A model generated the notes under the pieces. That model did not search any database. It was not told where the DNA came from and worked only from the letters and a program-made list of their open reading frames with translations. This document shows, piece by piece, positions 1-11,175 of a stretch of DNA of 11,175 nucleotides. Within the stretch, counting starts at the first letter, position 1. Every line of letters starts with the position of its first letter. Source of the DNA: Promethearchaeota archaeon. GTDB taxonomy: Archaea; Asgardarchaeota; Lokiarchaeia; Sigyniarchaeales; SOKP01. The DNA lies in assembly GCA_016839765.1 (NCBI GenBank), contig JAEOTP010000018.1:1-11175 (forward strand), read 5' to 3'. The position numbers and the translations under genes are program-made.

Positions 1-1205
1 GGAGATGCATTAATTCCATTCGCTAAAACATGTATAACAGCATGTTCATCGATACTCTTAAATAATAATTTTGAAATTTTATTAGGATCAAGGCTCATTA
101 TTGCCTCTTCCTTTGATATTAAACCTTCTTTAACCATATCAACAGCTATTTTAACTGCTGCTGAAGGTGTACGCTTACCGCTCCTTGTTTGAAGGATATA
201 TAGGATTCCATTTTCAATAGTAAATTCAATATCTTGCATGTCCCTATAATGCTTTTCTAGTTTATCCATGGTATTTAGTAATTGTTTATAGATTTTTGGG
301 AACTCTTTTTTCATTTCGTCAAGCATTTTCGGTGTGCGTATACCAGCAACTACATCTTCTCCTTGCGCATTTGATAAGTATTCACCAAATTTTATATTTT
401 CACCAGTAGATGGATCCCGTGTAAAAGCTACTCCAGTAGCAGAATCCCATCCCTTATTTCCAAAAACCATCGTTTGAATATTTACTGCGGTCCCATAATC
501 AGGAATATCATTAATTTTTCTATAAGTCATTGCTCTCTTATTATTCCATGACTTAAACACAGCTTCAATCGCGAGAAATAATTGTTTATAAGGATCTTGT
601 GGAAATAGAGAACCAATTTCATTTTTATATAAAGCTTCATAATCAGCAATTATTTTTTGTAAATCTGATACTGATAAATCTGTGTCTTGTGCATTTCTAG
701 AAATTTCACGCTTATATTTATTAAGAATCCTTTCAAATTTCTCATCTCCAATTCCCATTACCACATCTCCAAACATCTGAATAAACCGTCTCCATGAATC
801 GTAAGCAAATCGAGGATTATCTGTCTGTTCTGCCATACCTTTAACTGATACGTCATTTAAGCCAAGATTTAAAACTGTATCCATCATTCCAGGCATAGAT
901 TGGGGTGCTCCAGAACGAACAGAAACCAGCAAGGGATTTCGCTCGTCACCAAACTTTTTACCAGTCTTTTTCTCTAATTCTTTGAGATGCTTAATTACTA
1001 TAGGTTCAATTTCAGCCATTATTTGCTCTGGGTGTTGAAAATATTCCAAACATGCTTCAGTAGTTATCGTGAATCCTGATGGAATATTTAGACCTAAATT
1101 TGTCATTTCCCCAAGATTGGCTCCTTTTCCGCCTAAAAGATTCTTTAATTCTTTTTTTCCCTCTGTAAAATCATATATAAATTTGTTTGTTTCAGTGCTT
1201 GTCAT
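1..1205 (-). CDS. ppdK: Pyruvate, phosphate dikinase, N-terminal ~400 aa (runs off the left edge)
   Basis: Manual translation from ATG at 1205: MTSTETNKFIYDFTEGKKELKNLLGGKGANLGEMTNLGLNIPSGFTITTEAC...PLLVSVRSGAPQSMPGMMDTVLNLGLN...QTMVFGNKG..SATGVAFTRDPSTGE...NAQGEDVVAGIRTP...LEKHYRDMQDIEFTIE...LQTRSGKRT. These are hallmark PPDK nucleotide-binding domain motifs. Confidence 0.97.
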   Translation of the reverse strand, partial: MTSTETNKFIYDFTEGKKELKNLLGGKGANLGEMTNLGLNIPSGFTITTEACLEYFQHPEQIMAEIEPIVIKHLKELEKKTGKKFGDERNPLLVSVRSGAPQSMPGMMDTVLNLGLNDVSVKGMAEQTDNPRFAYDSWRRFIQMFGDVVMGIGDEKFERILNKYKREISRNAQDTDLSVSDLQKIIADYEALYKNEIGSLFPQDPYKQLFLAIEAVFKSWNNKRAMTYRKINDIPDYGTAVNIQTMVFGNKGWDSATGVAFTRDPSTGENIKFGEYLSNAQGEDVVAGIRTPKMLDEMKKEFPKIYKQLLNTMDKLEKHYRDMQDIEFTIENGILYILQTRSGKRTPSAAVKIAVDMVKEGLISKEEAIMSLDPNKISKLLFKSIDEHAVIHVLANGINAS

Positions 1206-1276
1206 TTTATTTTACCAAATCTCTATTAATATAAAATTCATGAAATCAAATAGAAAATTTTATTGTTTTAAATAAA

Positions 1277-1305
1277 TAAGAATTTAAAATTCTTAAGTTT
1301 ATAAA
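1277..1305 (-). promoter_or_regulatory. Candidate ppdK promoter: TATA box TTTATAAA (1298-1305) with an adjacent perfect palindrome TAAGAATTT-A-AAATTCTTA (1277-1295)
   Basis: The minus strand reads CAGAAAGTATA-TTTATAAA (purine-rich BRE-like stretch then TATA). The 9-bp-arm inverted repeat lies immediately downstream, near the expected start site. The region is very AT-rich, so other TATA candidates exist. Confidence 0.4.
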
Positions 1306-1360
1306 TATACTTTCTGAAATAAAATTTTGCTTTATTGAATATATATATAGCTACATGTAA

Positions 1361-2170
1361 TTATAGCTGTTTTAACAATTCATATATTTCCCAAATTCCA
1401 TCAATAATAAAATCAGGTTTAGAATCTTTACTTTTATTTATCATTTCCATGGTAATTTCTCCAGATAATACACAGCAAGTAGTAACTCCTGCCTCAATTC
1501 CCATTTTAATATCGGTATATAATCTATCTCCAAACATAATTGCATCTTTAGGAGAGATTTCTAATTCATGAAGCTTAAATAAGAGCATCTGTTTATTTGG
1601 TTTTCCAAAGACTTCAGGCATTCTTCCCGTGGCTTTATATAGTAAAGCTGCAATTCCACCAGCATCAGGAATATAACCTTCCTCTGTAGGACATCTATCA
1701 TCTAAATGAGTTGCAATATAAGGAATTTGATTTTGAAGTAGATATGAAGCATTTACTAAACGTTCATAAGTTAATTCTTGATCAAAAGCAAGCACAATTA
1801 TTTCTGGATTTTCTTCTGTCAAAATAAAACCTTCTTTCAAAAATTCCTTCTTAAGCGATTGTGTGCCTAATAAGAAAATCCGCTCATAATCATTTTTTTT
1901 AAGAAAATCTATGGTTGGGTGTTGAGATAATATAATATTATCCCGGGTTATGTTTAGGTTTAAATTAAGTAACTTCCGAATATAATCAGAAGTTGATTTA
2001 CTAGAATTATTTGAAAGAAAGTAGAAGTGTTTATTTTTACGTTCTAATATATCAATTAATTGAATCACTCCATCAAAAAGTGTATCGCCTAAATAAATAG
2101 TTCCATCCAAATCAAAAAAAAATACCTTCTTTTTAAGGATTTCAGATAAATCTTGTTTTTGATCATTCAT
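1361..2170 (-). CDS. HAD-superfamily subfamily IIA hydrolase (NagD-like sugar/nucleotide phosphatase)
   Basis: Motif I FFFDLDGTIY, motif II LSNNS, motif III GKP, motif IV GDRLYTDI; 269 aa. Confidence 0.93.
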   Translation of the reverse strand: MNDQKQDLSEILKKKVFFFDLDGTIYLGDTLFDGVIQLIDILERKNKHFYFLSNNSSKSTSDYIRKLLNLNLNITRDNIILSQHPTIDFLKKNDYERIFLLGTQSLKKEFLKEGFILTEENPEIIVLAFDQELTYERLVNASYLLQNQIPYIATHLDDRCPTEEGYIPDAGGIAALLYKATGRMPEVFGKPNKQMLLFKLHELEISPKDAIMFGDRLYTDIKMGIEAGVTTCCVLSGEITMEMINKSKDSKPDFIIDGIWEIYELLKQL

Positions 2171-2305
2171 AGGCGGTTTATTGATGTTTTAAGCAGATTT
2201 AATTAAATACTATTTTAATTAGTAGAAAAAATAATAATTCAAAATTAAATAAAAAAATGATTTAAAAATAAAAAATTTAATGAGAAAATCATAAAAATCA
2301 TAAGT

Positions 2306-2995
2306 TCAAGCAATTATTTTAGATGTTTCATCTTTTTTTTCATTTTGTATGAGCCATGCTTTATATTTAAAAGTAAATTTACCTTTTATTATGGCCTTAT
2401 ATCCTGTTTCTTCCTCAAATAAAACTTGCTTTATTTCTGAATCCATCTCCTTATATGTATAATAATTTATTCTTTTTTGTATTAAGAAATAAGTTATGAA
2501 TAATCCAACGAAGATCCCAGGGATAATTATCCTTTGAACGATTTCTGGAGTATAAATAATAGTTATTAATCCAAAGATTAATACAAAAGGGATAATGCAA
2601 TAACAACAATAAAAACAGTATGAAATTCCAGAAGAACTAGTTCTTGGTTTAAGTTGTATATCTAAATTTTTATTTGCGGCATCCCTGATTAACCACCCTT
2701 TATAGGCTTTTGTTAATTTATTTTTCTTTAATGGCTCTAAACCCATCTTGTCTAAAAAGTGCTCACGGTTTAATTTTGTATCTAGCGTAATGCATGTTCT
2801 TTTAATTCTTCGCAAAACTAATAAAAATAAAAATACTAAAACCAAACCTAAAAATGATACATAAATATACCACTCAAGAGGAGGAATAATATCTAATAAA
2901 AATAACCCTAAGATAATAATTAAGAGTAGAAAACTATTTGATATGATTTTCTCAGCTTTACCTCTTAAATATAAAGAAAAAAATTCTTTTAACAT
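2306..2995 (-). CDS. Hypothetical 4-TM membrane protein made of two internal repeats
   Basis: Four hydrophobic segments (about aa 22-39, 42-61, 126-148, 156-172). The soluble motifs at aa 80-103 and 193-216 align with each other without gaps. Confidence 0.75.
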   Translation of the reverse strand: MLKEFFSLYLRGKAEKIISNSFLLLIIILGLFLLDIIPPLEWYIYVSFLGLVLVFLFLLVLRRIKRTCITLDTKLNREHFLDKMGLEPLKKNKLTKAYKGWLIRDAANKNLDIQLKPRTSSSGISYCFYCCYCIIPFVLIFGLITIIYTPEIVQRIIIPGIFVGLFITYFLIQKRINYYTYKEMDSEIKQVLFEEETGYKAIIKGKFTFKYKAWLIQNEKKDETSKIIA

Positions 2996-3062
2996 TTTTA
3001 TGAGTTTAGAATTTTACTATTCTAATAAGTTAATCCATATTCAGAGTAAAAAATAATATAAG

Positions 3063-3070
3063 AAAAAAAA
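3063..3070 (-). terminator. Oligo-T (T8 on minus strand) archaeal-type terminator candidate after the 491-aa gene
   Basis: A8 run on the plus strand, 8 nt past the stop codon. Archaeal intrinsic termination uses U-tracts. Confidence 0.4.
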
Positions 3071-3078
3071 TGAAATTA

Positions 3079-4554
3079 TTATAGTTTTTTAATAGTCGAT
3101 TGATTACTTTTTAGCTTTGGTGTGCCACACCATGGACAAAAATTTGAAGTTTCAGAAAGTTTGCTACCGCAAAAAGAACATGTTTTAGCTTCAGCTGGAG
3201 TAGTAATTTCAGAAGACCCAATACTTCTTCCTTCTATTTTACCTCCACATTTGGGACAAAAATTCGCATCGTGTTTAATATCAAAACTACAACGAGGACA
3301 TTTTCTCGCCTCAATCTTAACTTCTTCTTTAATAGCTTTAGTAGTTTTAGTAGGTTCTGCTTTTTGTTCCTTTTTCGCTTTCAAACTCATTTTCTTTTGT
3401 CCTTTTCTCGCTGCAAAAGCTATAATGATTACAATGACTATAACAACCAGAATAAATATTAGTATCCATTGGATATCCAACCATCTATCAACATAAGTAA
3501 GCCCAGTATCATAAGTAACATCGAAAGTTATGGTAGTATTTAATTCAGGTGAATTTAGTGGATCATGATAAACAAAAAAATACCATGTGCCATCATAAGG
3601 TACTATAAAGCTATCAGATATATCAATCTCTGCTTCCTGAAACGCATACGCATCACTTAAGTTGTATACACCAATAGCAGTAAAATTTACAATGAAATTA
3701 ACTGTAGGGATAAACCCTCCATCATTATACCATGTAATGTAATAAACATTCGGTGTTGATATAGATAAGGTTCCAATAGACCCATTTGTGTTGTCAATTT
3801 GCCTGTAGAAGCTAGGACTCCCCCAATTAAGCCAAATATCCATTTGATTAGCATCAGCTATGAAAAAGTCGATTGGGTTGGTGGCATTAAAATTATAGTC
3901 AATCGAAGATCCTGTATTTAAATATACCTCATAATACTGATATTCATTATATTGAAGGTAGAAAAGATCAATATAGCCTCCCATTCTAGTAGTTGTAGGA
4001 AGGTTCTCAAGCCTTTGATCCCAAATGAGAAAACTAACATAACCCGGACTTGATTGGATTGAAAAAGTTATCTCATTTCCTTCTTCAATATATTCTTCTT
4101 CAAACCAATATTCGTTAAACCCAAGAAGCTGACTGTCACGATAATTTACGATTCCAGATGAGTCCGCATTAGTGAAAGGGAACCATAGACCGACTTGAAG
4201 TAGAGGAAGCATAATTAGTCCAAATATAATGGCAAAGAAGATTCCTCCACCAATATACATGGGACTGTAATACCACGGTCTATACCAGTGTCCAGCCCAC
4301 CATGGAGAATACCACCATCTATAATACCAAGGATGATATCCCCATCGATAATACCTATAATGAGGCCGATAGTAATTATGTCTATAAGGGCCTCGTGGAG
4401 ACCTTGAAACTATTCGATTAGCACCAGTTCGACCAAAGGGCATTCCCCCGGGCCTTATTCCTCTCCCTCTAAAACTAGCAGGAGCTCCTCGAAAGCCTCC
4501 GCCTCTGAATCCTCCTCCTCGAAAGCCTCCCCTAAATCCCCCACCACGTGGCAT
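3079..4554 (-). CDS. Two-TM membrane protein: RGG/FRGG-rich N-tail, Tyr/Trp/Arg-rich segment, outer beta-rich (APD1-4/DUF4793- or GOLD-like) domain, C-terminal double zinc ribbon
   Basis: MPRGGGFRGGFRGGGFRGGGFRG at the start. TM1 about aa 101-125, TM2 about aa 361-382. Four CxxC motifs (CPRC, CPKC, CSFC, CPWC). Five N-x-S/T sequons between the TMs. SD GAGGTG at 4566-4571. Confidence 0.85.
   Translation of the reverse strand: MPRGGGFRGGFRGGGFRGGGFRGAPASFRGRGIRPGGMPFGRTGANRIVSRSPRGPYRHNYYRPHYRYYRWGYHPWYYRWWYSPWWAGHWYRPWYYSPMYIGGGIFFAIIFGLIMLPLLQVGLWFPFTNADSSGIVNYRDSQLLGFNEYWFEEEYIEEGNEITFSIQSSPGYVSFLIWDQRLENLPTTTRMGGYIDLFYLQYNEYQYYEVYLNTGSSIDYNFNATNPIDFFIADANQMDIWLNWGSPSFYRQIDNTNGSIGTLSISTPNVYYITWYNDGGFIPTVNFIVNFTAIGVYNLSDAYAFQEAEIDISDSFIVPYDGTWYFFVYHDPLNSPELNTTITFDVTYDTGLTYVDRWLDIQWILIFILVVIVIVIIIAFAARKGQKKMSLKAKKEQKAEPTKTTKAIKEEVKIEARKCPRCSFDIKHDANFCPKCGGKIEGRSIGSSEITTPAEAKTCSFCGSKLSETSNFCPWCGTPKLKSNQSTIKKL
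4485..4530. repeat. 16-nt direct repeat CTCCTCGAAAGCCTCC (4485-4500 and 4515-4530) within the FRGG-encoding tract
   Basis: Exact copy with a 30-nt (10-codon) period; encodes GGFRG units on the minus strand. Confidence 0.8.
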
Positions 4555-4556
4555 TC

Positions 4557-5564
4557 TTAATCAGGCACCTCTCTATTTTCTGTAGATCCTTTCTGTCGGA
4601 AAAAATAGTCATGATTTATTGCAGCAAGAACCAAGAGCATTGAAATAATAGACATTGTCAATCCAAGGCTATCTAATGAAACTATTGTTGTAAGGTTTGA
4701 AATTGCAAACGCAATCCCAAATAGTATCCATTCAATAACCATAAAGATTATGAACAATATTGGAAAGATGTTTCGCAATAAAAATTCAGTAGTAGTGTAT
4801 TTATTCCCGATATAACTTGAGTAAATTAGAGAAAAGAGACTAATTATGCCAAAAATCATTATTAAAACACTAAATATAATAATTGCTAACCATACAGCCC
4901 CACTTCTCGAAAAAAGGTCTAGAAATGTAACAAAATAATCTGCTCCTCTTGCTTCAAACAGATGAAAAGTTACTTTTCCATCAAACATAAAAACAATACC
5001 AAATAAACTAATTAAATCTGTTTGATTCGCAGTAAAAAAGCCGTAGATCCCTCCAAAAGGTAAGAAAACACCTAAAACGATTGCTAATATTGAACAAACA
5101 GCAGTAAACAAAAATTGAACATATCGAGTATTAGCAACTGGAAATAATCCAACCTTATCACCCTCTTTATCAGGGATAAAACTCCAACAATCTTGAATTG
5201 AGCATACACCAATTAATTTGTTATTTTCTACGACCGGTACAACATTCACTTGTAAATCACGCATCCTTGTAAAAGCTTCTGTTACAGGAGTATCTAATGA
5301 GACAGGAGATATTTTATACATCGCCGAGGTAACGTTAGTACTTTTTGGGTCTAATCCTTCTGCAATAGTATTTTGGACAATATCGAAATCTCCTATTACA
5401 CCAATTACCTGCTCTGTTCCTTCTTCAACAACAACTAAATCTGGAATGCCTAATTGTTTCATCTTTTTCGCAGCATCTTCAACTGTGGCTTTAGTGGTAA
5501 TTATGTCATATTGATCATCTATTACTAAATCCTTTACAAAATATTCCTTAGTGTATAAGTCCAT
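4557..5564 (-). CDS. CBS-pair (Bateman) domain fused to a 4-TM C-terminal membrane domain
   Basis: aa ~10-128 match two CBS repeats (ATVEDAAKKMKQLGIPDLVVVE..VIGVIGDFDIV; TPVTEAFTRMRDLQVNVVPVVENNKLIGVCSIQD). Four hydrophobic helices follow. The stop codon is 2 nt from the next ATG. Confidence 0.85.
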   Translation of the reverse strand: MDLYTKEYFVKDLVIDDQYDIITTKATVEDAAKKMKQLGIPDLVVVEEGTEQVIGVIGDFDIVQNTIAEGLDPKSTNVTSAMYKISPVSLDTPVTEAFTRMRDLQVNVVPVVENNKLIGVCSIQDCWSFIPDKEGDKVGLFPVANTRYVQFLFTAVCSILAIVLGVFLPFGGIYGFFTANQTDLISLFGIVFMFDGKVTFHLFEARGADYFVTFLDLFSRSGAVWLAIIIFSVLIMIFGIISLFSLIYSSYIGNKYTTTEFLLRNIFPILFIIFMVIEWILFGIAFAISNLTTIVSLDSLGLTMSIISMLLVLAAINHDYFFRQKGSTENREVPD

Positions 5565-5727
5565 TCTTTATCACAAATTTTTTGGATAAATTAGTTATTA
5601 ATTACAAAAAAAGAAAGAACTATTAAATGTTACTATAGTCCAATTATTACTTTTCGTTTATTTAATTAAAAATCAAAATAGTTTTTGTTTGTCTAATTGA
5701 TATTTCTAAAAATAAATTTAAGTAGAT

Positions 5728-5735
5728 AAAAAAAA
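5728..5735 (-). terminator. Oligo-T terminator candidate after the SCP2 gene
   Basis: The minus strand reads CTCTTTCTCTTTTTTTT shortly after the stop codon. Confidence 0.4.
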
Positions 5736-5750
5736 GAGAAAGAGTATTTA

Positions 5751-6209
5751 TTAAAATAACTCTGTACCCTCGACCATAGTGGATGCTACGACTAATTCTT
5801 GCGCTGCTTTGGTAGCGCGCATTACTTTCGCCATGTTTCCTACTAATTTAAACTTACCTGCCATTAACCCTTGGATAGGATCGAGTTCTTTCTTTAACAC
5901 TTTTACCCAATTATCATAAGGACCTGAAAAAACAAATTCGGCACCTACTTTTTCACCTTCTTTTAACGGTCTAGGGGGTGAATTAGGAGATAACACTTCA
6001 TATTCCTCGTCGGGGGCTAAAACTTTAACTCCAGTGCAATCGCCTTTATATAATCCAATGAAAATTTTAATTTCATGATCTAAGTTTCCACTGGGTTCAA
6101 TAACAAAAATAAAATCTCCTTCCCACCACGATGCTGCTGTTTTATAATTAGGGTTACTATTTATTGCTTTCATATAAGCTTCATTCCATTCTTCTGAGAA
6201 AACTATCAT
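5751..6209 (-). CDS. SCP2 sterol/lipid-carrier domain protein
   Basis: FSEEW..AY...IN....Y..AA..W at the N-terminus and W..V....LDPIQGLMAGKFKLVGNM at the C-terminus are typical of SCP2. ATG at 6209 is preferred over the track's GTG at 6218, which sits within an SD-like AGTGA. Confidence 0.9.
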   Translation of the reverse strand: MIVFSEEWNEAYMKAINSNPNYKTAASWWEGDFIFVIEPSGNLDHEIKIFIGLYKGDCTGVKVLAPDEEYEVLSPNSPPRPLKEGEKVGAEFVFSGPYDNWVKVLKKELDPIQGLMAGKFKLVGNMAKVMRATKAAQELVVASTMVEGTELF

Positions 6210-6381
6210 ATTTTTCACTATTTATTTAATTTTTGAATATCTTCTGTTAGTATTATTTTTTATTAATACTTTTTTTTATTAATTATTTTTTTAAATTTAA
6301 TTCAAATTAAATAGTTCTAGAGGAATATTCACACTTATTTGTCAATATTTTTAAGAAAAATAAATTGTTAAAAAAGTTTTA

Positions 6382-7536
6382 TTAAACACCAATCCCGATT
6401 GTATTTCCAATACCAGCCACAATTATTTTTGACCCTTTTTCTGTACGTTTTCGTATTCCCATTTTAATCTTTTCTACAATGTTTGGTACACTTTGAGTAA
6501 TACTCCTACTTATCGTGGTGATAGCATCTTCTAAAGACTCTCTACATATCAATGCATCAATTGGAATTTCTTTTTTTGTCGAAGATTCTTCGATATAATA
6601 TTTCTCTACACCAATTCCACCAATAGCTGCTCCAACGCCTATAGCAATGGAACCACGCTTATCACCCGAAAGTTTCAAACCAGCATCAATCATTATTATT
6701 CTAGCTATATCATCTCCATGTTCTTCAATTAACTTCTTAATCGCAGTGCCTGGTTTTCCAACAGTTCCACCCGGACCCTTTGCACGAACAACATAAACAA
6801 TTCTATCTTCAAAGTTCACTTCTTGGACTATAGTATCTTTTGCAATTTCACGCGCTTTAATATCCCCATTATCAGAAACATTCCTTACAAAATTTCCAAC
6901 AACCAAGGGACCAAGGGAGTCTCCAATAGGACTACCTTCTGAAAACGCTTTAGTAGCGTGATAATATGATTTTGCCATTGAAGTAATTAAGCTCATTTGC
7001 ATCGAGATTTGCATTAGTAAAATATAGGATTTTGATTTCTTACCTAAAATTAAGTAATGCTTAACAAGCCTATATATAAAATCCACAGCCATTACTGCTT
7101 CAAGTAAGTTTTCCAAATTCTGAGCATCCGCAGAACCCTTTATTATATTTGGAGCCATTAGCGCTACTTCTTCTTTGAATCTATCATCTCTAACATCAAT
7201 AACATGATCTAACTTTGGAATAATTCCAAAAGGATCAAGTGAAACAGGAGTAATTGCAATAAAAGTTAAAAAATCTTCGAGTTTAATCATTAGATCTTTA
7301 TCAGTCTCTTTCTTATCAGCATACTTTTTAAAATTTGACAATAAAATTTGTTTACATTCATCATCCCATTCTTTAAGTTTAGTTAATCCAGTTTCAATTT
7401 CTTTCTGTGATCTCCATGCTTGAAGTTTAGTTCCATAGAACATCGAAATGAATATTAATACGAACCATAAAACTTGGATTATTAAACTAAGTGGATCTAC
7501 TTGAGTTTGACTAAATTGCATTAAATTTGAGAGCAT
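6382..7536 (-). CDS. DUF1512 family protein (N-terminal TM; C-terminal YyaC/GPR-like domain)
   Basis: Motifs PVSLDPFGIIPKL, PIGDSLGPLV, KGPGGTVGKPG, IIMIDAGLKL, GVGAAIGGIGVEKY and the C-terminal GIGNTIGIG are recognisable as archaeal DUF1512. Confidence 0.88.
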   Translation of the reverse strand: MLSNLMQFSQTQVDPLSLIIQVLWFVLIFISMFYGTKLQAWRSQKEIETGLTKLKEWDDECKQILLSNFKKYADKKETDKDLMIKLEDFLTFIAITPVSLDPFGIIPKLDHVIDVRDDRFKEEVALMAPNIIKGSADAQNLENLLEAVMAVDFIYRLVKHYLILGKKSKSYILLMQISMQMSLITSMAKSYYHATKAFSEGSPIGDSLGPLVVGNFVRNVSDNGDIKAREIAKDTIVQEVNFEDRIVYVVRAKGPGGTVGKPGTAIKKLIEEHGDDIARIIMIDAGLKLSGDKRGSIAIGVGAAIGGIGVEKYYIEESSTKKEIPIDALICRESLEDAITTISRSITQSVPNIVEKIKMGIRKRTEKGSKIIVAGIGNTIGIGV

Positions 7537-7680
7537 AATTATCCTTTATATATTTCAAGTATTAATATTTTAGAATTTTAATCTAGTAAATTTTCATAAT
7601 AACAAAATTTATTTAGTCTTATATTCTTTTCTATTATAAAGAATAGAATTAGAAGAACACAGACAGCTTAAGAGATATAT

Positions 7681-8109
7681 ATGATCGACGATGAGGATGA
7701 AGATGAGGAGATCTTAAAGAAAGGGGTCTCATTAAAAAGTGTACTAAAAAATTTACTCTTAATTCTATTAATTATAGTTGGAGTACTTTTTATTTATTTA
7801 GCCGGTGGTACCAATCAAATCACTAACTGGTTTATAGGTTTTTCATTTATATGCTTAGGTTCCACATTAATTCAAATTAAAAAACGTAAATCTGAACCAA
7901 ATTTGCAAACACTGTCTATTTTAAAATGTAATGTGTGTGGGATTACGAAAGTAAGAAATTACCAACACGGAGATTATGTTTTTAGAGAAGTAGAAACATG
8001 TAATGATTGCAATGAGTCAATGCTAATAGAGCAAATCTATAGTGTAAAATTAAAAAAACCAACAGTTGCGAAAAAAGAAGAAGAACTAAAAAGTAAAGCT
8101 AGGAAATAA
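7681..8109 (+). CDS. 2-TM protein with C-terminal zinc ribbon (archaeal DUF1512-associated type)
   Basis: Acidic N-tail DDEDEDEE, two hydrophobic helices, then CNVC...R.Y..GDYVF....CNDC...M.I..IY. Confidence 0.8.
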   Translation: MIDDEDEDEEILKKGVSLKSVLKNLLLILLIIVGVLFIYLAGGTNQITNWFIGFSFICLGSTLIQIKKRKSEPNLQTLSILKCNVCGITKVRNYQHGDYVFREVETCNDCNESMLIEQIYSVKLKKPTVAKKEEELKSKARK

Positions 8110-8144
8110 ATTAAATAATTGTATAATTAGTGTGGTGCTTCCTT

Positions 8145-8585
8145 ATTTTTAATAAATTAGGAATGGGTGGATCTTTCGACCATCTTCATGAAGGCCACAA
8201 ATACTTAATTGAGATTGCTTTATCTCTCTCAAGAAAAGTGATTATTGGTTTAACGACTCAAAGTTTATTGAAAAATAAAAAATTTCCTTCTAAAATAGAA
8301 AACTATAAAGTAAGAGAAGAAAATCTAAAGGGATTTATCAAGACATTCACTGATATTAGTAGAGTAGAAATTATACCATTAGAAGATCCATATGGACCTC
8401 CTATTCATGAACCTGATTATGAGAGTATTATCGTAAGTCAAGAGACTTATAAGACTGCTCTCAAGATTAATGAAATAAGAGAAAGCAAAGGGTTTAATCC
8501 TTTAATTATAATTGTAATACCAATTATTAAAGACTATAAAAATCAAAAAATTAGTTCTACAGCAATTCGTGAACAATTAATGTAA
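8145..8585 (+). CDS. coaD: Phosphopantetheine adenylyltransferase (archaeal/eukaryotic type)
   Basis: GGSFDHLHEGH (HxGH), IGLT, L.DPYGP, IIVSQET, IN..R...G..PL, KISSTAIR. The start is uncertain: the track gives GTG 8130, but ATT 8145 is favoured (see findings). Confidence 0.92.
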   Translation: MFNKLGMGGSFDHLHEGHKYLIEIALSLSRKVIIGLTTQSLLKNKKFPSKIENYKVREENLKGFIKTFTDISRVEIIPLEDPYGPPIHEPDYESIIVSQETYKTALKINEIRESKGFNPLIIIVIPIIKDYKNQKISSTAIREQLM

Positions 8586-8589
8586 AAAG

Positions 8590-8596
8590 TTTTTTT
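8590..8596 (+). terminator. T7 tract just after the coaD stop codon
   Basis: TAA-AAAG-TTTTTTT. Confidence 0.4.
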
Positions 8597-8727
8597 AAGG
8601 AACCTTTCTATTTAGAATTATATTAATTAATTGCTTGAGTTGCGATTTAATTGCTTAAAGCTATTAACAAATTATACTCGGAATATTATCTCAATCAAGC
8701 CTCATTTTTCTTTCAATTCTTTATTTT

Positions 8728-8771
8728 GCCAAGGGTGTAAAAATTAATTTTTTAAGTTTTTTTCCCTTGGC
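8728..8771. repeat. Long inverted repeat/hairpin GCCAAGGG...CCCTTGGC
   Basis: Perfect 8-bp GC-rich outer stem (8728-8735/8764-8771), plus an inner AAAAATTAA/TTAA(G)TTTTT stem and a 4-nt loop. Confidence 0.75.
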
Positions 8772-8863
8772 TGCGGATCTTGTCTATGTTAATTGATAAA
8801 AATGTATTAATTTCTTCCTTAATAACTATAGATTTATTCTAATTTAAGATAGGATAATTTTAA

Positions 8864-8916
8864 GTAAAATTTCGCGCGTAAAATTTAAATAAGTTAAAAA
8901 TTTAGAAATTATATAA
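8864..8916 (+). promoter_or_regulatory. Candidate pheST promoter: BRE-like CGTAAAA + TATA TTTAAATA (8884-8891); alternative TTATATAA (8909-8916)
   Basis: Matches to archaeal BRE/TATA consensus 30-60 nt upstream of the pheS ATG. Confidence 0.45.
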
Positions 8917-8946
8917 TAAAAAGGAAAAATTTTTGGATTTATTCAT

Positions 8947-10482
8947 ATGGCAATCAAGCTTAAAAAACAAGTAATAGAGATATTAAAGATTTTAAAAGAA
9001 AAAAAAGAAAAAGTTATTGCAGAAGATTTAGCGCAGGAATTAAATATTGATTATATAGTGCTTATGTCTGCTGTAAATGATTTAATAGAATATAATTTAG
9101 GCGGATTTAAAGAGAAAGAGATTAATAAAATCTCATTAAATGTAGAAGGTCAAGGATATCTAAGAAATGGATTACCTGAAAGACAATTGTTGCAACTTTT
9201 ATTAAAAAATGAGATTAAAGAAATATCTATTGAAGATTTTTTAAAGAGATCTAAATTAAATAAAAATATCTTCTATATTGGTCTTTCGAATATGAAAAAA
9301 AATCGTTGGATTGCTCAGAGTAAAGCAACAGGGGATAATAGAATTTATCTTATAACAGAAGACTACTCTGAAACCAAATTGGAAAAACTCTTAAATTTAT
9401 TTAAAGGAAATAAGTTTTTAGATTATTATTCATTTTCGAAAGAGGATTTAGAACACGTTGAAATCCTAAATAAAAGAAAATTGATTATTAAATCGAAAAA
9501 AATTGAGAGATTAATATTTCTAACTGAAAAAGGTAAGAAGCTACAACTTTCAAAAATCCAAGAATTAAAACAAGTTAGCAAGATTACGTCTAAAATGCTT
9601 ATAAATGGCTCTTGGGATAATTTTGACTTAAAAGCTTTTGATATTACTAAGCCAGGCCCTCTCTTGAAGGCTGGTAAGTTTCATCCCGTTATTGCCTTAA
9701 TAAATGAAATAAGAGAAATATTCTTATCAATGGGTTTTACAGAAATACGTGGTCCTATTGTAGAGAGTGCCTTTTTTAATTTTGATGCTTTATTTCAACC
9801 TCAAGATCATCCAGCAAGAGAAATGCAAGATACTTTTTATCTGAATAATCCTAAAGTGGCAAGATTACCAGAAAAAGATAGGGTACTTGCGGTAAAAGAA
9901 ACCCATGAAAATGGGGGGGATTCTAACTCGATTGGATGGGGTTATGAATGGGATGAGGATATTGCAAAAAGAACAGTTTTAAGAACCCATACGACGGCAA
10001 CAACTATTAGACGTTTAGCTCAATTCTATAAAAATAATGAAAATGTACCTGTAAAGGTTTTTTGTATTGACCGTGTATTTAGGAATGAGAAAGTCGATAA
10101 ATCACATCTAGCAGAATTTATGCAGGTAGAAGGTATAGTTATTGATGATCACGTAAATTTAGGTGACCTTATTGGACTTTTATCAGAATTCTATAGAAAA
10201 ATGGGATTTAAAAAGATTATTACTCGACCAGGCTTTTTTCCTTATACAGAACCTAGTATGGAAGTTTCAGTTTATTATGATAAGTTAGGTGAATGGCTAG
10301 AAATGGGGGGAAGTGGAATTTTTCGCCCGGAAGTAACCTATCCTTTCGGAATTAAAGAACCCACAAGAGTACTCGCATGGGGGCAAGGTCTTGAGCGGAT
10401 TGCAATGTTGTATTACGGGCGAGAAGATATAAGAGATTTGTATATCAATCCAATAAAATGGTTAAGACAACAAGCTTATTAA
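8947..10482 (+). CDS. pheS: Phenylalanine--tRNA ligase alpha subunit (long archaeal/eukaryotic type)
   Basis: G..HP, FNFDALFQPQDHPAREMQDTFY, LRTHTT, IDRVFRNE..D..HLAEF.QVEG, FFPYTEPSME, WLEMGGSGIFRPE, LAWGQGLERIAM. The N-terminal extension contains GLPE; 511 aa. Confidence 0.98.
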   Translation: MAIKLKKQVIEILKILKEKKEKVIAEDLAQELNIDYIVLMSAVNDLIEYNLGGFKEKEINKISLNVEGQGYLRNGLPERQLLQLLLKNEIKEISIEDFLKRSKLNKNIFYIGLSNMKKNRWIAQSKATGDNRIYLITEDYSETKLEKLLNLFKGNKFLDYYSFSKEDLEHVEILNKRKLIIKSKKIERLIFLTEKGKKLQLSKIQELKQVSKITSKMLINGSWDNFDLKAFDITKPGPLLKAGKFHPVIALINEIREIFLSMGFTEIRGPIVESAFFNFDALFQPQDHPAREMQDTFYLNNPKVARLPEKDRVLAVKETHENGGDSNSIGWGYEWDEDIAKRTVLRTHTTATTIRRLAQFYKNNENVPVKVFCIDRVFRNEKVDKSHLAEFMQVEGIVIDDHVNLGDLIGLLSEFYRKMGFKKIITRPGFFPYTEPSMEVSVYYDKLGEWLEMGGSGIFRPEVTYPFGIKEPTRVLAWGQGLERIAMLYYGREDIRDLYINPIKWLRQQAY

Positions 10483-10498
10483 AAACGAGGTGAAAAGA

Positions 10499-11175
10499 AT
10501 TCCAACATTAGAATTAAAAATTGAAAGATTAGAAAGACTGGTGGGAAAAAAGTTAAATATTCAAGATTTGGAATATGATTTACAATGGATTAGCCTTGAT
10601 TTGGAGGGTGTTAATGAGGACGAGCAAAAAATTAAAGTGGAATATAACCCAAATAGACCTGATTTCTCAAGCCCAGAAGGTATTGCAAGAACATTGAAAG
10701 GTTATTATGAAATTGAATTAGGGTTACCTCAATATGAGATTACACCTGGAGAAATAGTTTTAAACGTAGATCCTTCAGTTAAAAAAGTTAGACCATATAT
10801 TGTGTGTGCCGTAATCCGTAATATCGATTTAGATGAGGACGAAGTCGCTACTTTAATGAATATTCAAGAACACTTGCATTGGGCTGTTGGTAGAGATAGA
10901 AAGAAAGTAGCAATAGGAGTCCACGATTTTGATAAGGTTGTTCCTCCATATCGTTATACCGCAGTCAAACCAGAATCTGTTAGCTTTACTCCCTTGCATG
11001 GAGATGGGTATCCCATGAATTTAGAAGAAATTTTACTATTACACGAAAAAGGAATTGAATATGCTCATATCTTAGAAAAAAAAGAAGTATATCCTATTAT
11101 TTTTGATAAAAATAATGACGTACTTTCCTTTCCCCCAATAATTAACGGGGAACTAACGACAGTTACAGAACAAAC
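10499..11175 (+). CDS. pheT: Phenylalanine--tRNA ligase beta subunit, N-terminal part (runs off the right edge)
   Basis: Manual translation: (I/M)PTLELKIERLERLVGKKL...VEYNPNRPDFSSPEGIARTLKG...VRPYIVCAVIRN...LMNIQEHLHWAVGRDRKKVAIGVHD...YPIIFDKNNDVLSFPPIING. SD GAGGTGA at 10487-10493. Start is ATT 10499 or GTG 10490. Confidence 0.96.
   Translation, partial: MPTLELKIERLERLVGKKLNIQDLEYDLQWISLDLEGVNEDEQKIKVEYNPNRPDFSSPEGIARTLKGYYEIELGLPQYEITPGEIVLNVDPSVKKVRPYIVCAVIRNIDLDEDEVATLMNIQEHLHWAVGRDRKKVAIGVHDFDKVVPPYRYTAVKPESVSFTPLHGDGYPMNLEEILLLHEKGIEYAHILEKKEVYPIIFDKNNDVLSFPPIINGELTTVTEQ

Follow-up and report, generated by a model that had tools for sequence, protein, structure and literature searches.

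Arginine-glycine-glycine (RGG) and glycine-arginine-rich (GAR) tails, together with Arg-aromatic 'sticker' domains, are regarded as hallmarks of RNA biology and phase separation in eukaryotes: RGG boxes bind RNA, and contacts between Arg and Tyr drive phase separation of the FUS type, in which Lys is no substitute for Arg. Peptides rich in Trp, Pro and Arg such as indolicidin partition into membrane interfaces, and so do Trp-rich regions preceding a transmembrane (TM) helix. The GAR domain of fibrillarin has been stated to be absent from Archaea (PMC9957100), and no relevant paper joining RGG or GAR with Asgard archaea or Lokiarchaeota was found in the literature searched. Among membrane proteins, the APD1-4 family, characterised by the domains PF16040 and PF16041, is described as eukaryotic membrane RING E3 ligases (Luo et al. 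2012, PMID 22897245, as cited in PMC6118397). Here, a stretch of 11,175 nt from a Promethearchaeota archaeon (GenBank assembly GCA_016839765.1, contig JAEOTP010000018.1, positions 1 to 11,175; termed the window) was analysed with regard to the gene at positions 3079-4554 of the reverse strand, whose predicted two-pass membrane protein begins with an RGG- and aromatic-rich tail of 100 residues. This tail, the only one of its kind in the genome of an Asgard archaeon, appears to be fixed to a membrane and is more constrained than the folded domains of its own protein. Its basic residues are almost without exception Arg, although the proteome is rich in Lys, and its gene consistently forms a unit of two with that of a CBS sensor protein. 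New results on the tail are its four-block anatomy, its Arg:Lys statistics, a contrast in selection between the tail and the remaining protein, a putatively ancestral juxtamembrane block and a variant with Gly-His and Gly-Tyr repeats.

The open reading frame (ORF) at 3079-4554(-) translates into a protein of 491 amino acids (aa) plus stop. Four RGG and five FRG units are located in aa 1-42, a segment with 17 Gly, 9 Arg and 6 Phe residues, and aa 55-100 comprise 14 Tyr, 8 Trp, 6 Arg, 6 Pro and 4 His, i.e. 38 of 46 residues (83%). Translation and counting thus reproduced the initial annotation, which had been made from the DNA sequence alone and had reported four RGG and five FRG units in aa 1-42 and a Y/W/R/P/H tract in aa 55-100; the interval that it gave for the tail, 4255-4554, corresponds exactly to aa 1-100. 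In the source genome (3.32 Mb, 29.7% GC, 96% complete), six-frame translation into ORFs of at least 60 aa returned ORF 3079-4554 alone with at least three RGG or at least three FRG units. The genome-wide maximum of Tyr plus Trp per 46 aa is 22 and is found in aa 55-100 of the same ORF, short spurious ORFs coming next with 14 and long ORFs with 12. The RGG/aromatic tail is real and lies far beyond chance.

The start codon ATG at 4552-4554(-) follows the stop codon TAA of the upstream gene (4557-4559) at a distance of 2 nt and is preceded by a sequence similar to a Shine-Dalgarno (SD) site. Across 93 distinct orthologous loci the start codons (70 ATG, 21 GTG and 2 TTG) are all at the MPRGG position, so that M/V/L-PRGG is the start in 93/93 loci, and an SD-like site not more than 22 nt away is present in 93/93. 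The argument of the initial annotation that the SD sequence GAGGTG and the coupling to the upstream gene support translation of the tail was thereby strengthened, and the downstream starts that it had named as possible counter-evidence, M38 and M99, gained no support, as these positions are Met in just 3/49 and 11/49 aligned sequences, respectively. For codons 1-100 the ratio of non-synonymous to synonymous substitution rates (dN/dS), determined at codon level for unsaturated pairs, is 0-0.12 in comparison to 0.15-0.40 for the remainder of the gene, and in the closest pair the first 100 codons carry 12 synonymous and no non-synonymous changes. By these signs, the first 100 codons are a genuine, translated N-terminal tail, and purifying selection, as estimated from the codons, is stronger on the tail than on the remaining protein. 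A wrong start and an untranslated tail were ruled out by the dN/dS values, the conserved start and SD site and the unconserved internal Met residues. An origin of the repeats as an artefact of DNA slippage was likewise rejected, because the imperfect 15-nt repeat in the DNA of the RGG-bearing part is matched at 74% only and synonymous changes dominate.

Conservation along the protein was scored as the mean majority fraction in an alignment of 49 sequences, and on this basis the tail was divided into four blocks (Table 1). The tail is kept in about 120 orthologues at 40-95% identity, which belong to the order of the source organism and to a second lineage from another class. In line with the proposal of the initial annotation to examine orthologues for it, nearly all homologues were found to begin with the same tail and to share the invariant motifs MPRGG, PFGRTG, GPYxH and RPWY..SP.Y.GGG. 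The number of RGG units varies between 2 and 9 per tail with a median of 5 (119 tails). Block II has a score of 0.84, and block IV, which contains repeated Y-x-P-W units and ends in GGG at the first TM helix (TM1), is the most conserved segment of the protein (0.86). Since blocks I, II and IV score 0.77-0.86, and the outer domain, the zinc ribbons and the linker after the second TM helix (TM2) score 0.65, 0.66 and 0.39, respectively, the tail is, by this measure, the best-conserved part of the protein. It is predicted to be disordered: an AlphaFold 2 (AF2) model based on the 49-sequence alignment has a predicted local distance difference test (pLDDT) value below 50 for residues 1-76 and 78-97. 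In view of its position-specific invariant motifs, and of an aromatic block common to relatives that have no RGG units, the tail is judged to be more than a generic low-complexity region.

The basic residues of the tail are almost exclusively Arg. In 119 full-length members the tails have a length of 99-129 aa and contain, when pooled, 2193 Arg, 2 Lys and 1 acidic residue, whereas the pooled linkers after TM2 of the same proteins contain 1138 Lys and 218 Arg. The proteome of the genome consists of 8.9% Lys and 3.7% Arg, with a genome-wide K/(K+R) of 0.71. Because Lys could also build a positive-inside signal, the near-exclusive use of Arg points to guanidinium-specific chemistry, in which the partners would be phosphate or RNA, or else aromatic rings through cation-pi and pi-pi interactions, rather than to a mere positive-inside signal. 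A pure positive-inside signal was rejected on the Arg:Lys ratio of 2193:2.

Altogether, more than 270 relatives were found, more than 100 of them full length at 46-90% identity and all from MAGs (metagenome-assembled genomes) belonging to the Promethearchaeota/Lokiarchaeia type; their records at NCBI are named 'zinc ribbon domain-containing' or hypothetical. In a sample of 301 genomes of the phylum, full-length matches were present in 55/68 genomes of the family to which the window belongs, in 6/7 of a sister family and in 18/21 of a second lineage in another class, and essentially none were present in the other groups of this sample. One window-family-type copy was observed there on a 3.1-kb contig (G304:C264, L030) of a genome of another family with 8% contamination and is probably mis-binned. 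A separate search for relatives added one genome with a full-length match from a third family of the same order, and in the GTDB set 114 species genomes encode a relative. The family is thus described, from its distribution and predicted layout, as two-pass membrane proteins of Loki-type Asgard archaea, occurring in Promethearchaeia and in one lineage besides. In this second lineage, the orthologues (L026:2387-4066, L027:2414-4078) have about 560 aa and an extra RING-like C4C4 finger at the C-terminus (zf-RING_4, 18.6 bits). A tail-bearing orthologue is encoded in a closed genome of 4.32 Mb whose genus also includes a MAG titled Promethearchaeum sp., which makes it directly testable in a cultured lineage whether prokaryotes employ an RGG/aromatic grammar, what such a tail would bind and whether the APD-like receptors signal through it.

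Two groups of more distant proteins are informative about the age and the tolerance of the tail. A profile search of 1.8 billion representatives revealed remote relatives of 370-470 aa (P0157-P0180) with the same layout of TM helix, sandwich, TM helix and zinc ribbon, which have ordinary polar N-tails without RGG units but retain, next to the membrane, a weaker motif (PWY..WG.P.K.WF.SP...G) that can be aligned with block IV. None of this group was detected in scans of GTDB representative genomes and JGI metagenomes, and a phylum-wide genome search with P0164 matched the RGG family alone. The occurrence of the motif in RGG-less relatives implies that block IV is ancestral and that blocks I-II were added in the Loki-type clade; judging from this alignment, block IV is older than the RGG part and probably has a structural role. 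The second informative protein is a divergent Lokiarchaeial orthologue (L119:3348-4964), in which Gly-His and Gly-Tyr repeats replace FRGG and PFGRTG is lost. As judged from these sequences, what persists through divergence is a Gly-spacer tail with aromatic and cationic stickers. About 1.1 kb downstream of the divergent orthologue, a gene for a small GTPase of the Arf family was observed (Pfam Arf, E 6.5e-37; L119:6069-7013).

Regarding the orientation in the membrane, median values for the outer domain are a net charge of -29 and 3 N-X-S/T sequons, and Cys is essentially missing from it; all tails together contain 1 sequon. A topology with both termini inside and the sandwich outside fits the data, since the outer domain is acidic, sequon-bearing and Cys-free, Lys residues follow TM2, and the Cys4 ribbons are located at the C-terminus. 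The placement of both termini in the cytoplasm and the K-rich segment after TM2, both proposed at the outset, agree with this charge pattern, and the segment itself was confirmed.

Taken together, we tentatively read the tail as a cytoplasmic Arg/aromatic sticker-and-spacer arm that binds polyanions, most plausibly RNA, and/or self-associates while being anchored at the membrane interface, and we consider this possible, at somewhat less than an even chance. The tail would be located in the cytoplasm, with the zinc ribbons of its own protein and the CBS pair of the obligate partner from the operon close by. Block IV would lie at the interface of the inner leaflet and anchor TM1, and blocks I-II would form a flexible arm of Arg and Phe/Tyr stickers on Gly spacers, whose guanidinium groups would make many simultaneous contacts, most likely with RNA among the polyanions and/or with the aromatic rings of adjacent tails. 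If the protein clustered, be it through its outer APD/GOLD-like domain or under the control of the CBS partner, a membrane-attached Arg/aromatic network could result. The RGG copy number of 2-9 and the replacement by Gly-His and Gly-Tyr repeats with retention of the CBS partner suggest that it is the sticker-spacer property that is kept through sequence change. Several observations weigh against the sticker-and-spacer arm. Low-complexity domains that depend on composition do not usually contain invariant motifs such as PFGRTG and GPYxH, which point to a specific folded partner; no other RGG protein and no detectable PRMT5 are present in the genome, which gives no sign of a wider system of RGG and ribonucleoprotein (RNP) components; a Pfam search of the window protein revealed no RRM, KH or methyltransferase domain; and the topology is predicted from charge and sequons only. 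A more far-reaching form, in which a membrane-anchored RGG/aromatic condensate or RNA-tethering module, with an APD-like receptor as scaffold, would recruit RNA or ribosomes to the membrane upon an outside or nucleotide signal and would be a prokaryotic counterpart, or even the precursor, of RGG-based RNP assemblies and of mRNA localisation at membranes in eukaryotes, is improbable.

The chief rival is a specific docking tail in which blocks I-II would serve as short linear motifs that bind a folded partner, most likely the acidic CBS pair or else the protein's own zinc ribbons; adenosyl ligands would thereby control coupling or auto-inhibition within the two-gene module. Both PFGRTG and GPYxH are maintained with very low dN/dS, and the partner is constantly at hand: the CBS gene is located directly upstream, ending 0-9 nt (mode 2) before the start, in 89/90 loci with enough upstream DNA, the one remaining locus containing masked bases. 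The gene pair is kept together in the family of the window, in two sister families and in the second lineage, and hence across families and classes. Moreover, the CBS pair, for which structural matches reached Z 15-16, has a net charge of -6 to -16 and would face a tail that has 16-24 Arg and lacks acidic residues. On the other hand, the divergent orthologue without FRGG and PFGRTG keeps its coupled CBS partner (41% identity), and a variable RGG copy number suits a flexible arm better than a fixed interface. Docking is rated unlikely; even if the tail only docks the CBS partner, a new conserved Asgard membrane signalling pair would be defined.

A second alternative dispenses with any role in nucleic-acid binding and assumes that the whole Arg/aromatic tail binds the anionic inner leaflet and alters lipid packing or curvature. 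Block IV, rich in Trp, Tyr, Pro and Arg, abuts TM1 and is conserved in the RGG-less remote relatives, Arg is used exclusively over Lys, and binding to membrane interfaces is a property of peptides rich in Trp and Arg as well as of Trp-rich segments in front of a TM helix. As an analogy only, block IV may be compared with indolicidin, tritrpticin and the membrane-proximal external region (MPER) of HIV gp41, with which it shares the W/P/R composition and the position directly before a TM helix; unlike them, block IV is placed on the cytoplasmic side by the predicted topology and is part of a larger protein that is neither an antimicrobial peptide nor a fusion protein. However, FRGG repeats that are rich in Gly and 60-100 residues away from the membrane bind lipids poorly, and the invariant PFGRTG is left unexplained. 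Membrane binding or shaping as the function of the entire tail is quite unlikely.

The label 'eukaryote-style' given to the tail in the initial annotation holds with regard to composition, while homology to eukaryotic GAR domains was not detected. The RNA-binding or condensate-nucleating role that it put forward is likewise predicted from composition only, as is methylation of Arg. The tails have the composition of a GAR domain, namely an RGG/RG cluster with Phe and Gly and one Asp or Glu in 119 tails, and share with fibrillarin (N-terminus), GAR1 and nucleolin (C-terminus) clustered (F)RGG(G) units, Gly spacers, predicted disorder, the lack of acidic residues and the use of Arg only. In contrast to these soluble RNP proteins, the Asgard tail belongs to a prokaryotic two-pass membrane protein, continues into invariant linear motifs and a Trp/Tyr/Pro block, and neither homology nor, in the genome, a protein arginine methyltransferase (PRMT) was detected. 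Among short proteins, a search with aa 1-60 retrieved fragments of the same family only, a search of the ESM Atlas with the tail gave no usable match, and a PDB sequence search gave nothing below E 0.25, low-complexity filters limiting all three tests. For PF05185 (PRMT5), no match was obtained in the 96%-complete genome while control genomes responded; PF22528 (PRMT_C) gave no match in the genome either, yet the control genomes were silent as well. Because no PRMT5 was detected and no other RGG protein is encoded, the eukaryotic package of RGG, PRMT and RNP is apparently not present as a system in this genome. With the Gly-rich low-complexity domains of FUS, hnRNP A1 and plant GRP7, the tail has in common that Arg and aromatic stickers are placed on Gly-rich spacers in one chain and that Arg is not exchangeable for Lys, and among divergent orthologues the repeats shift towards GY and GH, which is also seen in Gly-rich RNA-binding proteins; it differs in being much shorter, membrane-tethered according to the predicted topology, very rich in Trp, conserved position by position and without an RRM.

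On these grounds, the tail is very improbable as a true forerunner of the eukaryotic GAR domain, homologous to the tails of fibrillarin, GAR1 and nucleolin and methylated at Arg. Its FRGG periodicity like that of eukaryotic GAR domains, its Asgard host lineage and the relation of the outer domain to a eukaryotic family (APD1-4_N, 28-29 bits in orthologues) would be in agreement with such a descent, but no similarity beyond composition is detectable, no PRMT5 was found, the context is a membrane protein and not an RNP protein, the family was found in a few Asgard lineages only, and short repeats are easily convergent. Finally, the view of the tail as a topogenic (positive-inside) signal, neutral low-complexity filler or an untranslated region ahead of a downstream start, which could appeal to its strongly basic character in front of TM1 and to the gene callers that began the orthologues P0004 and P0036 at a downstream Met, is effectively refuted by the exclusion of Lys, the cheap basic residue in this genome, and by the low dN/dS, the invariant motifs, the conserved start and SD site and the unconserved internal Met.

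The coordinates of the features of both genes are summarized in Table 1.

Table 1. Features of the RGG-tailed membrane protein gene and its coupled partner, in positions of the window.
Feature	Position	Strand	Evidence and remarks
Whole gene, 491 aa + stop: tail, TM1, outer beta-sandwich, TM2, Lys-rich linker, double zinc ribbon	3079..4554	(-)	Translation, Pfam DZR 40 bits, AF2 model, >270 homologues
SD-like GAGGTG	4566..4571	(-)	11 nt 5' of ATG, in the terminal part of the upstream gene
Block I, aa 1-36, MPRGGG then FRGG(G) repeats, copy number variable	4447..4554	(-)	P2 R3 G4 G5 R22 invariant, score 0.77, pLDDT <50
Block II, aa 37-59, PFGRTG..R..SRSP.GPY.H	4378..4446	(-)	P39 G41 R42 T43 G44 R47 G55 P56 Y57 H59 invariant in 49 sequences
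Block III, aa 60-74, Arg/Tyr/His linker, length variable	4333..4377	(-)	Indels, lower conservation 0.68
Block IV, aa 75-104, juxtamembrane aromatic block (PWYYRWWYSPWW.G..YRPWYYSP.Y.GGG)	4243..4332	(-)	P75 G88 R92 W94 Y96 P98 Y100 G104 invariant
TM1, about aa 101-125, read as uncleaved signal anchor	4180..4254	(-)	AF2 helix 98-118; L116, P117 invariant
Predicted outer domain, aa 126-355, acidic, Cys-free beta-sandwich, APD1-4_N / GOLD-like core	3490..4179	(-)	AF2, structure match, PF16040
TM2, aa 363-382	3409..3468	(-)	Long AF2 helix
Lys-rich, predicted cytoplasmic linker, aa 383-418, poorly conserved (0.39)	3301..3408	(-)	1138 Lys vs 218 Arg across family
Double zinc ribbon, aa 419-479, four CxxC pairs	3118..3300	(-)	Pfam DZR PF12773 E 4.4e-10; 8/8 Cys invariant
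Partner gene, 335 aa: acidic CBS pair + 4-TM domain with outer beta loop	4557..5564	(-)	Pfam CBS, AF2 model, structure matches

In the AF2 model of the window protein, residues 135-349 form an all-beta domain predicted with confidence (pLDDT about 95). Residues 187-297 superpose on the GOLD domain of p24beta1 (5azw_B) with Z 13.4 and a root-mean-square deviation of 1.4 Å over 87 aa; further matches were 5gu5_A (Z 13.1) and 7rrm_C (Z 12.7), and other small beta-sandwiches reached Z 9-10.6. As modelled, the core of the outer domain has the GOLD beta-sandwich fold, and the likeness is one of shared fold only: sequence identity to the p24/TMED GOLD domains is 10-13%, the topology differs, and no EMP24 match occurs among the Pfam matches of the window protein and the family members. 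PF16040 (APD1-4_N) matches the window protein with 13.2 bits (E 0.074), below the cut-off of 27 bits, whereas the orthologues P0038, P0049 and P0051 exceed this cut-off with 28.4-29.1 bits, and 27/49 members match at E < 1; for PF16041 (APD1-4_M) the sole trace is a match of 12 bits (E 0.24) in one orthologue. The DZR match (PF12773) of the window protein clearly exceeds its cut-off of 27.3 bits, and the Pfam search indicated that the protein has no C-terminal RING finger and ends in two sequential C4 zinc ribbons. The host protein, as distinct from its tail, thus resembles APD1-4 in the succession of TM helix, outer domain, TM helix and cytosolic zinc module and in the APD1-4_N similarity that passes the cut-off in several orthologues, and it differs in having a double zinc ribbon in place of a RING finger and a merely faint APD1-4_M signal. 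From its GOLD-like core and its APD1-4_N similarity, the outer domain (3490-4179(-)) was noted as a possible eukaryotic-signature domain. The same outer domain was also observed behind unrelated N-terminal regions in P0130 (875 aa), which starts with a zinc-ribbon-like CxxC segment, and in P0141 (652 aa); both may be fusions or mis-joined gene calls.

In the partner protein, the first outer loop is beta-rich and the TM part has no Pfam family. The likeness of the TM part to tetraspans of the TARP/claudin type is too weak to be relied upon: the best match, TARP gamma-3, had Z 11.3, which is below the trustworthy level for helical bundles, and 'claudin-like' is a lead only. Downstream of the gene pair, a membrane protein of 229 aa is encoded at window positions 2306-2995 (-) and has a weak trace of Wzy_C (E 3.5e-4); this neighbour adjoins the pair within the genus only and is placed outside the conserved two-gene unit.

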